A stretch of 11,743 bases of DNA from a virus. Taxonomy: Duplodnaviria > Heunggongvirae > Uroviricota > Caudoviricetes. Made by a program: the position numbers. Where the stretch lies: the IMG/VR virus record IMGVR_UViG_2645727555_000019. One strand, 5' to 3'. Below are positions 1 through 6,000 of the stretch, piece by piece (within the stretch, counting starts at the first letter, position 1; every line of letters starts with the position of its first letter).

Positions 1-3000
1 TTCCGTTCATATGAGCAAAAGTGGTGTTGAAGAAACATCCGTTTTGTGATGTTTTTTTAATCTTTTTGGGGTTTTAATTCCTATCGATGAACGTTACGGG
101 CAATTTTCACAGAGTAGTTAAAAGCTACTCTGTGCTTGAACTCACGTAAAGTTTCACCTTCAAGTTTGAAGAAGTGTTTTTCCTCAATGAAACGACCTTT
201 GTTTTCGTGGTGATTCTGGCGAATACGAATAGCTTCTGTGCCGTAAAGGTGCGCCAAAAGTTCGGTAGTGATAACGGGGATCTGCTTGTAAGTAATCGTG
301 GAGAGTGTTTCAACAGAGATTTGAGTTGTCATAATGACGCCCTCGAGTGGTTTCTTAATAACTCACCACCGACGACGCCAATCGTCTGGTGGTGAACTGT
401 GCAGGGTTGGCGTAACCGGGAAACCGACCGGCGCGGATCTCTCCGCCCCCACACAGCCCACCATAATTCAGATGTGCGCGTGCATACGACAATAAAAAAC
501 ACGCTCGCGGCGTGTATCTGTCGCGGTCTCTATCCAGGACGCCAATCCCGACGCCAGATTTTGCTGGCGCGTGAGGAATATAGCCCCGAATAAATCATCA
601 CGTCAATCACCTTGTTTTCCTCGCACGATGTCTTAGCCACCGGATATCCCACAGGTGAGCCGTGTAATTGAAGGCTTTAACGTCAGATTCTTTTGGGATT
701 GGCCTGGGTTTATTTCTGGAACGTTTCGTTGGAAGGTAATTGCAGTTTTCACAGACTATATCGGTAATGCTTCGTCGCTGTCGTCTCATTCATACCTCCT
801 GTCGGTAAATCTGACACCCTGCTCCACAGCCCAGGAAGTTGTGTACTCAATCAGGCTTGCCATACGCTTCACGCTCATCTGCGCACTGCTTTCGCGGATA
901 TTGACGTATTCACCTTCAAGACCAGGCAAAACATCAGCTTCCTGTTTTGTCGCCACGGCATGACCGCTGATTAACAAAACTTTCCACTGTTCTGGTTTTA
1001 GCCATCTGCCGCACCACTGAACCTGTCGGGAGATATCAGCGACCATCGCGTGAAATTTGGCATTTTGATCGAGATTCCGCTTGTAATCGGTGATGCGGAT
1101 CGTAACGGGTTTGTCTTTATCGAGAGTTGTTGCAAGGATGGCGTTAATGGCGAATTGTTGCTGCTGCTTACTTCGGAGGAAGATAGTCTGGTTCATTATT
1201 CCCTCTCACTGGATTTTCCCAACAAAAAAGGAGCCGAAGCTCCTTTAGTTTCAGAATTCAAATTGTCTTGCCCGTAGGCTTTTCAGCATTGGCATGGCCC
1301 GCTGGATAACGGAACTTGACATGTCGAGACGTGTTACCTCCCTCAGTAGCGCGTCTCTGTTCTTCGTCACCATGTAGATGGTCTCAAACGCAATGTCATA
1401 CAGCTTGTTCGTGTATGAGGAGTTCAGCTCTTTCATAATGGGATACAGGTGTTTGCTGATGTCCTGGGCTTTTTCCATCCAGAGCTGCATGTAGCAAAGG
1501 AGGATGATTTCTTCGGCTGTGAATTGTGGCTGAATCTGCGGCTGCTGTTCGGTTGGTGCTGTTTTTCCCTGGCTGAAATAGCAGTCTTCCAGTTTTTCGA
1601 ATACCTCCCACGCCCGATCGGTTTCGAGCATTTTTGCGTGACGGGCTGCGCCGCGTTCTGTCCAGAGGATGAGGGAGCGGGCATTTTTACCAACTAACCC
1701 GATTGTTTCGGGTCTGTTCTTAAACTCGCGTAATTCGTTTTTTTCAATTTTAAAGTAATGCTTTCCGGGCATGAATCGCGTCGTGTTGTTCAGAAAGTTA
1801 TCAGAAATGTTTTTGATTTTTGTTCCGTAAAGGTGAGCCAACAGTTCAGTAGTAATTACGGGGATCTGGTTATAGGTAACAGGGGAAAGGTTTTCGACAG
1901 AAATTTGAACAGCCATAATGACCTCGCGTTTCGATAATTTTTACCTCGCCACCGTCAGGTGCTAATCATCGTGGTGGCGAACTGTGCGGGGTTAGCACTA
2001 CCGGTCGAAACATCCGGCGAGCCTTTCGGCTCCCCCACACAGCCCGCCATAAATCGCGAATGTGACTGTGCTTAGCGCATAAAAAAACCGCCAGCGCGGT
2101 TATGCACCGTTTCGATATCCGGGGTGCTAATCCCGACGCCAGGTTTTGCTGGCGCGTGAGGAATATAGCCCCGAACACGCGACGTTGTCAAACTGATGGC
2201 ATTGCAGATCCCTACGCAATGTAACACTATGTGTTATACATTAATAACGGAACAAAAAATGCGCATTTTTAAAAACGCCTGGTTTGAGCGACTTGCACGC
2301 AAAACAAAATATCCGACCAATCACTGCGCGAAATTGTTAAACAGGCTGATAACGGGCTTATCTCAGCAAACCTGGGTAACGGCGTTATCAAGCAACGTCT
2401 GCCACGAGTCGGTGGCGGCAAATCTGGCGGTTATCGCACAATCATTTTCTATCGCGTCGGCACAAGGGCCTTTTTCGTATATGCATACGCAAAAAATGAA
2501 CGTGAAAATATAACCGCTACTGAGGAAAGTGCATTTCGGAAGGGGCTCCTCACGTACTCAATCTAACAGATGAACAACTGGCACAACTGATTCTACAGGG
2601 TCAGTTTACGGAGGTACCCAATGAGTAAAAATTACCGCAGTGATGCGCTTGCATCCGTACATGAAATGATGGAATCGCTTCATGATATCGGCGCAGTAAC
2701 GAAACAGACTATGCGAGAATTCGATGAAACTTGTCTCCAGCCAGCGCCGGTAATGTCTCCGGAAAGGATCCGTGCACTGCGCGAACGAGAGCATCTGTCT
2801 CAACCTGTTTTTGCCAGATACCTCAACGTCAGTAAAAACCTGATATCAGACTGGGAACGTGGTGTAAAACGGCCGGGAGGTGCCGCTCTTCGCCTTCTTT
2901 CAGTCGTAGAGAAAAACGGAATCCAGGTAATATCATGATACTCCAATACAACAAAACCCGCCGAAGCGGGTTTTCATTAGAAGCACCTTTAGTTTTGCTG

Positions 3001-6000
3001 TTCTATTTTAAGCTTGATAGTTTCATACAAAACAACAGTTGCGCCTGTTTTACATAATTCCCGGCCGTCATACGCACGAGACCAATAACACAACCAGTTC
3101 TCGAGATCTTCTCGAGTATAGGTTTTGCAGGCCAGTCCCTCTGCCATTTCCACGATTTCATCGCCTGGTGCTGTTAACTCATAGCCATTCAACAACAAGA
3201 AGACATAACCAGCCATCATAGCTGTTCGTTTGTTTGCATTAGCAAATGGATGATTCTGAATCAGACTTTCAATCAATACTGATGCCAGTACAAACATGTC
3301 ATTAGTCTGTTCATACCATCGAACCATGCTGGGACGAGACTGAGAAGAACTTAAATTATCAACACTCAGCACACTAACAGGTTCATCTGGTGTTTGAAGC
3401 TCAATTAAAAGGCGATTAATTTCGGTAAGATCATCAAACGAAAGGTAGTGCACTCCTTCAACAATCTCAGCCATAGAGCACAATACCCATCATTACACTT
3501 TTGAAAGTTCTTCCATTGCCTTCTCGTAACGAGAAAAACCGAAATCGAAAGCATTTTTCACCTGCTCACGATGAGTGCAATTTTCATCGATAGCCGGGCG
3601 CGGAGCTGCCACAACGCTTTTATCGCGAGGGGGAATAGTCAATCGCGGGTGTTTTTTTAGTGCGTAGCTCATTGGGTGTACCCTTACTTCTCCGTCCTGT
3701 TCTTTAACAAAAATCAAGTCAATACAAAATTAGTCAGGCTAATGTTGTTAGCATAGCCTAATACCGATCGTATTCACAACCACAGTACGTGAAAAAACCC
3801 GCCGAAGCGGGTTAAGTGCGGGTGCGTTGAGGATGCCTGACACATCAGAGGTGGCGAGGGATTTCTCCCTCGCCTGGTCTCTTACTCCTCAGGTTCGTAA
3901 GCTGTGAAGACAGTGACCTCCGTCTGGCCGGTTCGGATTCGTACCTCGCAGAGGTCTTTCCTCGTTACCAGTGCCGTCACAATGACGGTAATACAGATGA
4001 CGATCAGGGCGACTAACATCGCCTTTTGCTGCTTCATAGCCTGCTTCTCCTTGCCTTTCGGCGCGTAAGAGGCTAACCTACATGTGTCTAGCATGAAATT
4101 GGCCTCAGATTAATGTTAGGCGTCTTGCAGGACGCGTAATGTTAACTGGGGCTTTTCTCTGTCTGCCTTACGGTGGCATGCCCGAGGCAGACAGCCTCAA
4201 GCACCCGCAGCAATTCTACTTAACTCTCGCTTTACCGCAAACCGTTTTTACCCGATATGGGAATTCCCATATCGTAATGAATTCAGTTCCCTAGTCGATC
4301 CATCAAAAACACAACCAGGCAGTAAACGCCCACAACAGCAATAACAGCCAGCGCACCTTCCATTGCCAGTGATATATCATCCGACATATTCCCTCCTTTG
4401 GTGTTAATCCCGGCGAACGTTTTTACCCCCACCGACAAATAACATATACTAAAAAAGTGATAGCCATAGCAACGCCTGTAATTGCAAATGCTTCAGGCCA
4501 GTTCATTGGCGCACCTCCTGCGGCGGTTCTGGTAGCGGCATCCAGTCGGTTACATTGCGGCTCTGTGTTTCGAAAAATTCATCACCATCACGGACTACAT
4601 CAAAAAACTCACCGTCTCGATATTGCGCATAAAGAACGAATGCGCCATCACATAAAATAATTACGTGCTGACCGTCATCCGGCATTCGCTCACTACAGCT
4701 TATCCAACCATCCAGAGTTACCGGATGGTTGGTTGACGTTTCCGAGATTTCCCGAAAATTATTGGTTGACGAACCCTTCTTTTCCCGAAAGTTTCCAGCC
4801 TGAAGCATGGCGGCGCTGTCTGGCGGGGCAGCATATAGCGGCACGTATATTTCCGGTTCCTTATCAGCACCGGGTTGCTCTTCCAGTGAGAATGTCTTTC
4901 CGGTAAATCGATTCATATAAAGCACGGGCTCTGCTTCCAGCGAAGCCTGAGCAACAAGGGCCAGTGCTAAATCCAACTCAATTGCCTCGAGAGAATTTTT
5001 GAATGCTGTCTGTTTTACTGCAAATTTCATCGCCTTTACATTTTCACTAACATGACTGATTAACTGCTCTTTTGTAAAAGTGGTCATCTCATTCTCCTTT
5101 GATGCGAATGCCAGCGACAATTGAAGCCTGATAGCTAATTTACTCACAGTACCGCCTCCTGAAAATTCCCCTGATAGAAAGCCAGCACGCGCTGCATAAC
5201 TTCACTATTCCGGCACTCGCGACAGATTATGTTCAGGCGTCTATCGTAGCGGCGAATTTCTCCGTCTGGTAACTTTCGAATCAATGTCTGGTCAGTTGTT
5301 TTCTCCGGTGTCTTACGCCATACGCGATACACCTGTTCTGATGCAAAAACACCGTATTTACCGGACATGTATAAATCGCCACAAGCCAGTACATCCACAA
5401 GGCAACGTCTGACTGAATGCCAGCCTGCTCCCGTCGCTCTCTCCAGTTGCGATATCGTCATGCGTTCATTTTTGCGTACCAATCCGATAATTCGTGCCTT
5501 CAGTTCTTCCCGCTGTTCGTGTGTAAAAGGTTTCGCCATAAGCGCCTCCGGCAATCACTTTTCCGACACAATACGACCGGATGAATCGACAATCTGTCGA
5601 ACAATATCCCGGTGCTTGTTCAGCTCCCGCAGCGCGGCGCAGACTCGCTCCCACTTCTGGACCTGTTTTTTGGCGCGACGAAGTTCTCGACTGGCAGCAT
5701 GCAGCGATGGAAGCATCACCGAACTGGCAGATTTTTCGGTGAATGATGGAACTTCTCGGATAAACTCATCTGTACTGGCCTTTGCCGTGCTCTCTGATGC
5801 CAACGGAAAACGATTCATTTCATCGCCTGCCGCGCTGTTTTCTGCGTCATGGTGTGATTGCTTATTCTGCGATGATAAGGCGCTCAAATCGCCGTTTTCG
5901 ACATCAGGCATTTTGTAACGGAATTTTCCGTTGCTGATCTCGCGTACCAGGCGTCTCGTTGCTGTTACCACCGCCAACGTGGAAGCAACCTTACGAGTGC

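Follow-up and report, generated by a model that had tools for sequence, protein, structure and literature searches.

Probable mosaic of accessory toxin-antitoxin cassettes in the early-right operon slot of a Rac/lambda-like Escherichia coli prophage

We analyzed a stretch of 11,743 nucleotides (nt) from the IMG/VR virus record IMGVR_UViG_2645727555_000019 (hereafter, the window), which represents the early region of a Rac/lambda-like Escherichia coli prophage, with a focus on the toxin-antitoxin (TA) genes at positions 2196 to 4506. Three TA cassettes of different families lie side by side there, each closing with its own terminator hairpin: a HigB-2/HigA-2-like module, a Doc-family module, and a hok/mok/sok locus. 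The best explanation, to which we assign a probability of about 80%, is that accessory "moron" cassettes have assembled as a mosaic at a swap-prone site, or slot, within the early-right (pR-type) operon. The slot is located between the replication-linked genes (O-like, DnaC-like, DUF1627, DUF977/lygF, and DUF551) and ant-ninB (Table 1).

The block from 1900 to 4700 was found as a whole in 33 of 5,426 complete E. coli genomes, and prophages with the same backbone carried other cargo in its place. These two findings rule out a scenario in which the TA genes are core genes. In SCU-104 and SW070917, whose cI/cro/cII/O/P genes show ~97% identity, homology was lost at 2191/2192 and regained at 5907, and the segment corresponding to 2192-5906 was replaced by genes for a Gp49-type (PF05973) toxin, a helix-turn-helix (HTH) antitoxin, an 81-amino-acid (aa) open reading frame (ORF), and a DUF4145 protein. 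This break, at 2191, is where homology to the same-backbone prophage loci L004 and L005 stopped. The isolated phages POCJ13 (a Stx phage) and PhiR5_2 hold the same Gp49-HTH/DUF4145 cargo, while the slot of strain N61 presents, in order, an OLD-family nuclease, hok/sok, and the doc cassette, and O157:H7 PV15-279 carries ORF6N, hok/sok, and an intact relE-higA pair. Across the ~8 slot architectures that we inspected, related backbones carried five or more alternative contents, and the ends of the homology blocks mapped to 2191/2192, 2972/2973, 3793/3794, and ~4250-4256. The variable slot extends past 2196-4506, from after DUF977/lygF to the ant/ninB genes, and the cargo at 2196-4506 comprises at least four independently assorting cassettes rather than one island. 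The original prediction had described accessory cargo inserted as one island with its left edge at 2196. Its accessory nature was borne out by the synteny of related phages, which showed other gene sets in the slot and no conserved core, and the left edge fell 5 bp off the true mosaic breakpoint; a single insertion, on the other hand, is ruled out by the separate breakpoints.

A divergent pair of a small ORF (57-81 aa as annotated) and the DUF4145 protein was located at 3806-4724 of L004, 4669-5587 of L017, and 4661-5579 of L018, and the DUF4145 protein of these sister prophages and phages showed a weak PADLOC likeness to PD-T7-4 (E = 0.002). The N61 locus (L009) encodes at 6817-8697 a 626-aa OLD-family ATPase/TOPRIM nuclease with a PADLOC Old match of 187 bits and Pfam matches to AAA_15 and OLD-like TOPRIM.

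The doc cassette, with a G+C content of 0.40-0.42, has been gained or lost cleanly, as a unit of 841 bp, at a 20-nt hairpin that terminates both hok and doc. The repeat, AAAACCCGCCGAAGCGGGTT, flanks the cassette in two exact copies, a match that arose by chance in 0 of 200 shuffles, and the first hairpin spans 2953-2974 overall. It is the native terminator of hok, being 100% identical at the hokD (relF) locus of the K-12 Qin prophage, and the native terminator of doc too, as it was found downstream of a doc homologue in Salmonella phage SW-37. When we removed the cassette in silico and joined the flanks at one repeat copy, this synthetic "empty site" query matched HCP4S3_I4 in one piece at 99.6% and many O157/O26 enterohemorrhagic E. 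coli genomes at 94.4%. The higA-hok junction was found in 202 genomes, with doc within it in just 33 of those. The doc cassette had a patchy distribution, with ~125 genomes and at least two contexts, one other context being that of N61, where the arrangement is hok-T-59aa-doc-T (T, terminator). It had no megablast match in the phage collection, and tblastn retrieved only seven phage records, the best of which were Salmonella SW-37 and two Pseudomonas phages. The gain would probably have occurred by recombination with a hok-T-doc-T donor, with crossovers in the hok/sok homology and in the 20-nt hairpin; the reverse event would be a deletion between the 20-nt repeats, removing doc. The comparison favors insertion over deletion because the doc-less form is wider spread and more diverged.

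Table 1. Features of the TA region and of the surrounding prophage backbone in the window
Feature	Position	Strand	Remark
HigB-2/RelE-like (PF06296) toxin pseudogene	2259-2628	+	Two 1-nt deletions
HigA-2-like HTH antitoxin, 105 aa	2621-2938	+	Intact; HTH_3 E = 1e-7, 32.3 bits
Doc cassette	2973-3813	-	841-bp indel spanning the promoter, both genes (59-aa and doc), and a single hairpin copy
Hairpin copy 1, exact 20-nt repeat	2953-2972		Bidirectional terminator for higA (+) and doc (-)
Hairpin copy 2, exact 20-nt repeat	3794-3813		hok terminator (3794-3816)
Doc (death-on-curing) Fic-fold toxin, 161 aa	2989-3474	-	From ATG at 3474
59-aa putative Doc antitoxin gene	3493-3672	-	Directly upstream of doc
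Promoter-like site of doc cassette, TTGTGA-18-TATGCT	3750-3779	-	8/12 hexamer matches
hok mRNA	3794-4206	-	Rfam leader start 4206 to terminator
mok, 70 aa	3882-4094	-	In frame with hok
hok, 51 aa	3882-4037	-	In-frame 3' part of mok
Sok-like cis-antisense RNA	4086-4156	+	Maps onto annotated sokW of phage 933W
Perfect 22-bp palindrome	4253-4274		Right edge of hok/sok cassette, just upstream of hok promoter-like site
Micro-ORF 1, 34 aa, single transmembrane segment	4283-4387	-	Shine-Dalgarno AAGGAGG
Micro-ORF 2, 27 aa, single transmembrane segment	4423-4506	-	Shine-Dalgarno AGGAGG inside DUF551 end
Sigma-70-like promoter of isrK-C4-ant (P1 immI-like) module, TTGACA-18-TATATT	2162-2191	-	11/12 hexamer matches
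ninE	607-789		Beyond ninB
ninB	786-1196		Beyond ant
ORF6N/P22AR anti-repressor (ant)	1251-1916		Beyond TA region
DUF551	4503-5147	-	pR-type operon, co-linear series
DUF977/lygF	5144-5554	-	pR-type operon
DUF1627	5555-6325	-	pR-type operon
DnaC-like loader	6351-7091	-	pR-type operon
O-like gene	7098-8180	-	pR-type operon
cII	8434-8730	-	pR-type operon
cro	8847-9125	-	pR-type operon
cI	9182-9889	+	

By its genes and predicted RNAs, the type I hok/mok/sok locus is complete and intact. Hok, whose gene PGAP names hokD, has an intact frame and matched PF01848 at 78.4 bits (cut-off, 22) and phrog_251 at E = 5e-32. The Rfam sok model RF01794 matched 4032-4206 on the minus strand at 116.9 bits (gathering score, 59) over its full length (model positions 1-157 of 157). 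The minimum-energy fold predicted for the full-length hok mRNA (4206-3794) places the 5' end on the 3' end in a tac/fbi-like closure (z = -7.3), pairing GGGUGCUUGAGG with CCUCAACGCACCC, and for the Sok-like RNA a long hairpin is predicted between a single-stranded 5' tail and a U-tail (z = -6.2). Promoter-like sites were present for hok (TTGCGG-16-TAGAAT at 4240-4213) and for Sok (TTGCCT-17-TAACCT at 4051-4079), the latter matching the consensus weakly. The stretch 3810-4250 was 91% identical to the hokW-mokW-sokW locus of the Stx2 phage 933W, where Hok is likewise 51 aa, Mok likewise 70 aa and in frame, and Sok at the matching place. In the Sakai prophage Sp5, hokW-sokW has been verified by experiment as a type I TA system (PMC8621323). 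However, hokW is located near attR in 933W, whereas the window hok lies inside the pR operon, between DUF551 and the micro-ORFs on one side and the doc cassette on the other; the window Hok shows seven nonsynonymous codon differences from HokW, and several bases differ in the 5' tail of Sok. The palindrome at the right edge of the cassette, CGATATGGGAATTCCCATATCG, is neither a T-tailed terminator nor a known operator, and among 18 fetched loci its exact sequence was found in only seven islands, all bearing doc.

Both genes of the second cassette, a putative type II module, are intact. Its toxin belongs to the Doc family, as judged from its matches to Fic/Doc PF02661 (E = 3e-11; 2989-3483), NCBIfam TIGR01550 DOC_P1 (122.1 bits; cut-off, 38.65), phrog_577 (E = 1e-50), and two solved Doc proteins, PDB 9vzc and 3k33 (the latter at E = 1e-4). 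The entry 3k33 is titled just "Death on curing protein," and we take it to be the P1 Doc structure. The open frame of doc reaches a TTG at 3483. The sequence HPFANANKRTA is intact, and its part HPFANANKR (residues 78-86) aligns to the P1 Doc motif HxFx(D/N)(A/G)NKR. The window pair resembles P1 Phd-Doc in its DOC_P1 score, in the conserved catalytic motif, and in the small gene immediately upstream of the toxin. However, the window Doc is ~21% identical to P1 Doc and ~35 residues longer at the C terminus, and the P1 pair resides on a plasmid prophage, whereas the window pair is in an integrated lambdoid prophage. The partners also differ: the 59-aa protein is a full-length member of phrog_2208 (E = 3e-42) and had no match to Phd/YefM or to any other Pfam or NCBIfam family and no credible PDB match. 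The pair therefore has a Doc-family toxin but is not strictly Phd-Doc. In Pseudomonas phage LPPA56, whose Doc is 53% identical to that of the window, the ORF directly preceding doc encodes a protein with 57% identity to the 59-aa protein. The gene of the latter differs from that of N61 by 14 synonymous and six nonsynonymous changes. As the gene pair with Doc is conserved across genera, there is good circumstantial evidence that the 59-aa protein is a Doc antitoxin. An imperfect palindrome, AGGCTAATG...CATAGCCT, overlaps the promoter-like site of the cassette and could be an operator.

The third TA pair consists of an orphan antitoxin and a pseudogene, because the window toxin carries two frameshifts. 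The ORF at 2196-2513 matched Pfam RelE PF06296 at a subthreshold 17.9 bits (cut-off, 27) and over profile positions 1-34 alone, and a three-frame translation showed the family sequence resuming in the other two frames. Alignment to the HCP4S3_I4 allele, which is intact at 123 aa and covers profile positions 1-120 of 120 at 157.8 bits, located one deletion in an A run (A5 to A4 at 2301-2304) and the other, the loss of a C, between 2543 and 2544. The intact 123-aa alleles, at loci L007 and L008, scored 157.8 and 161.3 bits, and the closest solved protein to the intact toxin was Vibrio cholerae HigB-2 (E = 3e-3). The antitoxin, an Xre-type HTH protein (phrog_2104, E = 3e-43), was closest to V. 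cholerae HigA-2 (PDB 5jaa, E = 8e-8). The toxin gene comes first, and its stop codon lies within an 8-nt overlap (2621-2628) with the start of the antitoxin gene. This upstream, overlapping toxin gene and the C-terminal HTH of the antitoxin are shared with V. cholerae HigB-2/HigA-2, whereas the double frameshift of the toxin sets the window module apart and sequence similarity to the Vibrio proteins is low.

The toxin lesions varied across nine islands, where del47, del269, del287, and truncation by IS66 were found in varying combinations; the toxin was intact in just two alleles among the islands inspected, those of the doc-less HCP4S3_I4 and of O157. The toxin of PS2Canimalfeces12 seemed intact at 112 aa, but its alignment shows the first deletion, PGAP having chosen an ATT start. 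At positions 1-2467 of the locus from E. coli NMBU-W12E19 (L015), an IS66 element (tnpA/B/C) replaces the ant side and cuts the toxin at about nt 127, a fourth and independent route of toxin destruction. The antitoxin protein, on the other hand, was identical in eight annotated strains, and its codon changes were mostly synonymous (22 synonymous and one nonsynonymous relative to the O157 allele; 31 and seven relative to PhiR12_3); it has thus been kept under purifying selection while the toxin was lost repeatedly. In a speculative reading that we consider improbable, the antitoxin could be a domesticated anti-toxin that counters HigB-2-type toxins, whether these come from rival prophages or from the host, or alternatively it could have been taken over as a regulator by the immI-like ant module next to it. 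HigA as a repressor of the neighboring ant promoter was not supported, as the operator-like palindrome (~2221-2243) lies at least 30 bp from the -35 element of that promoter, and it is retained solely within this improbable reading. In phage PhiR12_3 (L001, 3276-4973), the block of ant, relE pseudogene, and higA adjoins integrase and methyltransferase genes outside the nin region. Compared with the window, the toxin remnant there shows 99.7% identity but higA only 85.7%, which points to a recombination joint inside the TA module.

We considered whether the toxin could still be produced by programmed -1 frameshifting at the A run, where, in our own reading, tRNA-Lys slipping back by one nucleotide on A_AAA (2301-2304) would bring back the consensus frame. 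This is highly improbable, and we rejected it. The intact allele merely has one extra A, the second deletion downstream is beyond repair by one slip, and other strains show other lesions, such as del269 and the IS66 insertion; the site also has neither a canonical slippery heptamer nor an evident stimulatory structure.

Each of the two micro-ORFs encodes one hydrophobic stretch, with best 17-residue Kyte-Doolittle scores of 2.95 (34 aa) and 2.34 (27 aa). The 34-aa ORF is annotated by PGAP as WP_001278450.1, its exact sequence occurs on ~984 contigs, and a diverged 29-aa homologue adjoins hok in N61. The ATG of the 27-aa ORF overlaps the DUF551 stop codon (ATGA), and this ORF was absent from the protein collection, so that its status as a coding gene is weakly supported. 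No promoter-like site was found ahead of either micro-ORF, and we read both as ordinary small genes of the pR operon, apparently coupled translationally to DUF551, and not as separate cargo. They were also considered as type I toxins with antisense RNAs, a possibility that we discarded because the plus-strand promoter-like sites at 4363-4390 and 4422-4450 were at chance level. The inventory of the original prediction agreed with our results for the decayed RelE/HigB-like module (a subthreshold PF06296 match, two 1-nt deletions, and an intact HTH antitoxin), the Doc-family module (the DOC_P1 score, the intact motif, and the upstream 59-aa ORF), hok/mok/sok (Hok, in-frame mok, an Rfam sok match above the gathering score, and Sok on the sokW position), and the two membrane micro-ORFs. 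Of its further claim that each element has its own promoter or terminator signals, the TA cassettes showed clear terminator hairpins at 2953-2974 and 3794-3816 and weak promoter-like sites for hok, sok, and doc; the micro-ORFs showed no such signal. Similarly, the mixed orientation said to interrupt the operon was confined to the relE pseudogene with higA and to Sok, the only plus-strand elements of the island, the micro-ORFs being co-linear with DUF551.

We propose that hok/sok and Doc with its 59-aa partner would act as live, self-regulated addiction modules within the mosaic. The labile antitoxins, Sok RNA and the 59-aa protein, would need continuous production; if the segment were lost or its transcription stopped, Hok would depolarize the membrane, and translation would be blocked through phosphorylation of elongation factor Tu (EF-Tu) by Doc, an activity that is established for P1 Doc. 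Addiction of this kind would stabilize the prophage segment, and it could also fire on superinfection or induction. Several points weigh against this picture. Addiction is less obviously useful to an integrated prophage than to a plasmid. The putative antitoxin role of the 59-aa protein is argued from gene order and conservation, and the window Doc allele is two residues apart from the commoner allele. Although the hok, sok, and doc cassettes have fitting promoter-like sites, these match the consensus weakly (7-8 of 12 hexamer positions), and in a strict scan the promoter and terminator counts of the window were no higher than expected from shuffled sequence.

Other roles would be compatible with the same mosaic, and addiction, defense, and lysis help are not mutually exclusive. 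The cassettes might form an anti-phage defense island, in which the TA modules cause abortive infection: once host transcription has been shut off by a superinfecting phage, death or arrest of the lysogen would protect the clonal population and the prophage. The OLD-family nuclease of N61 and the weakly PD-T7-4-like DUF4145 protein that the slot houses elsewhere are in keeping with this, as are the lowering of T4 plating by R1 hok/sok, as cited in PMC8621323, the established hotspots of defense genes in P2/P4 prophages (PMC9122126), and the protection of E. coli by atypical TA systems (bioRxiv 10.1101/2022.05.12.491691). However, defense-system detection, to which the original prediction had also pointed, yielded nothing specific: among the island proteins, PADLOC-DB 2.0 gave generic HTH matches for HigA and two weak Fic-region matches for Doc (E ~0.002-0.005), and no match for the toxin, the 59-aa protein, Hok, the micro-ORFs, or DUF551. 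Moreover, the repeated inactivation of one of three toxins argues against strong selection for that module, and the prophage-borne hokW-sokW helped its phage rather than blocking phages (PMC8621323). On balance, we regard a defensive role as rather unlikely.

An equally doubtful proposal, drawn by analogy with Sp5, is that hok, and possibly doc, would serve the lytic cycle of the prophage itself: upon induction Sok would be lost, antiterminated pR transcription would read through hok, and the Hok thus made would speed lysis and release. In Sp5, hokW-sokW doubles phage release after mitomycin C, Sok disappears on induction, and HokW production is RecA dependent (PMC8621323). In the window, hok, doc, and the micro-ORFs point the same way as the pR operon, and an N-like protein is encoded at 10595-10903 (a weak Pfam match of 20.3 bits). 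The two-fold effect in Sp5 is modest, however, and because hokW of 933W, a close Sp5 relative, lies outside the pR operon, read-through of the window hok is an assumption; the Doc and HigA parts would also be left unexplained. It is conceivable, though we hold it only tentatively, that the cassettes are selfish hitch-hikers in decay, hard to lose, recombining at shared terminators, and of benefit to neither phage nor host. The HigB-2 remnant, with at least four different toxin lesions in nine islands, would then represent the usual fate, and the patchiness of the doc cassette and its low G+C, which suggests a recent foreign origin, would fit as well. What speaks for function instead is that the frames of higA, doc, the 59-aa gene, and hok are intact with mostly synonymous divergence, and that the predicted regulatory fold of the hok mRNA is fully preserved.

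The accessory mosaic has a parallel in the P2/P4 hotspots (Rousset et al. 2022, PMC9122126) and in lambdoid morons, which share with it a fixed slot with many alternative gene sets, the presence of own terminators and mostly of putative own promoters in those sets, and TA-like pairs and an OLD-family nuclease among the occupants. In contrast to the P2/P4 hotspots of antiviral systems, which belong to another phage family, the window slot is inside an early operon and not next to cos; the likeness is drawn from the gene content of the ~8 architectures inspected. That the slot from DUF977/lygF to ant-ninB is a lambdoid counterpart of these hotspots, with new defense or counter-defense occupants, is a speculative idea that we consider improbable; its candidate occupants could be the two membrane peptides (34 and 27 aa), the 59-aa partner of Doc, which is not Phd, and the pair of DUF4145 protein and small ORF of the sister phages. 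In the literature, we found no specific paper on a TA or defense hotspot in the lambdoid nin region, and a paper on the svsR small RNA proved to concern something other than this locus.

Prophage-borne TA cassettes are well known, and the region carries little weight as a discovery. Across FORC_069 and other complete E. coli genomes, identity reached 99.9% over 98% of the window, and for the region 2196-4506 identity was 100% with strain AST198 and 97.7% with the lineage of the O104:H4 outbreak. In related genomes, the NCBI pipeline names its products RelE/ParE-family toxin, HTH protein, death-on-curing toxin, hypothetical, HokD, and hypothetical. RefSeq already has annotations for the named TA genes, all of known families, and the O104:H4 outbreak strain is among the genomes so annotated. 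The new details are minor: a doc indel bounded precisely by a hairpin, a toxin lost more than once, and a Doc partner outside the Phd family. The region nevertheless provides a worked example of lambdoid mosaic assembly, in which a cassette comes and goes precisely at a 20-nt hairpin common to two unrelated cassettes, and an example of repeated, independent toxin loss with the antitoxin retained. It also marks a variable slot in Rac/Stx-type phages whose uncharacterized cargo can be screened for effects on defense or lysis timing.

Some observations concern the backbone around the slot. To its left, where isrK starts at 2155, the P1 immI-like anti-repressor module is present as a tandem pair, at 81-590 and 1251-2175, on either side of ninB/ninE. 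Both copies, which are 79-92% alike, carry isrK (RF01394), the C4 antisense RNA (RF01695), its a1/b1 targets (RF03163), and an ORF6N ant gene, the ant of the left copy being just 83 aa. On the other side, the protein encoded at 10595-10903 is likely the N antiterminator, its N_peptide match being below the gathering score of 27.9, and is hypothetical in RefSeq. A QPQQPEAD...PGPS peptide present inside the O-like protein is repeated by a 72-aa ORF (8201-8419) located between the O-like gene and cII, and a 16-nt unit is tandemly doubled at 8267-8299 (region 8173-8420). The O-like gene itself contains a (TTCCTG)4.5 repeat encoding EQEQEQ (7400-7720), and these repeats around cII and the O-like gene may be related to an origin or to iterons.

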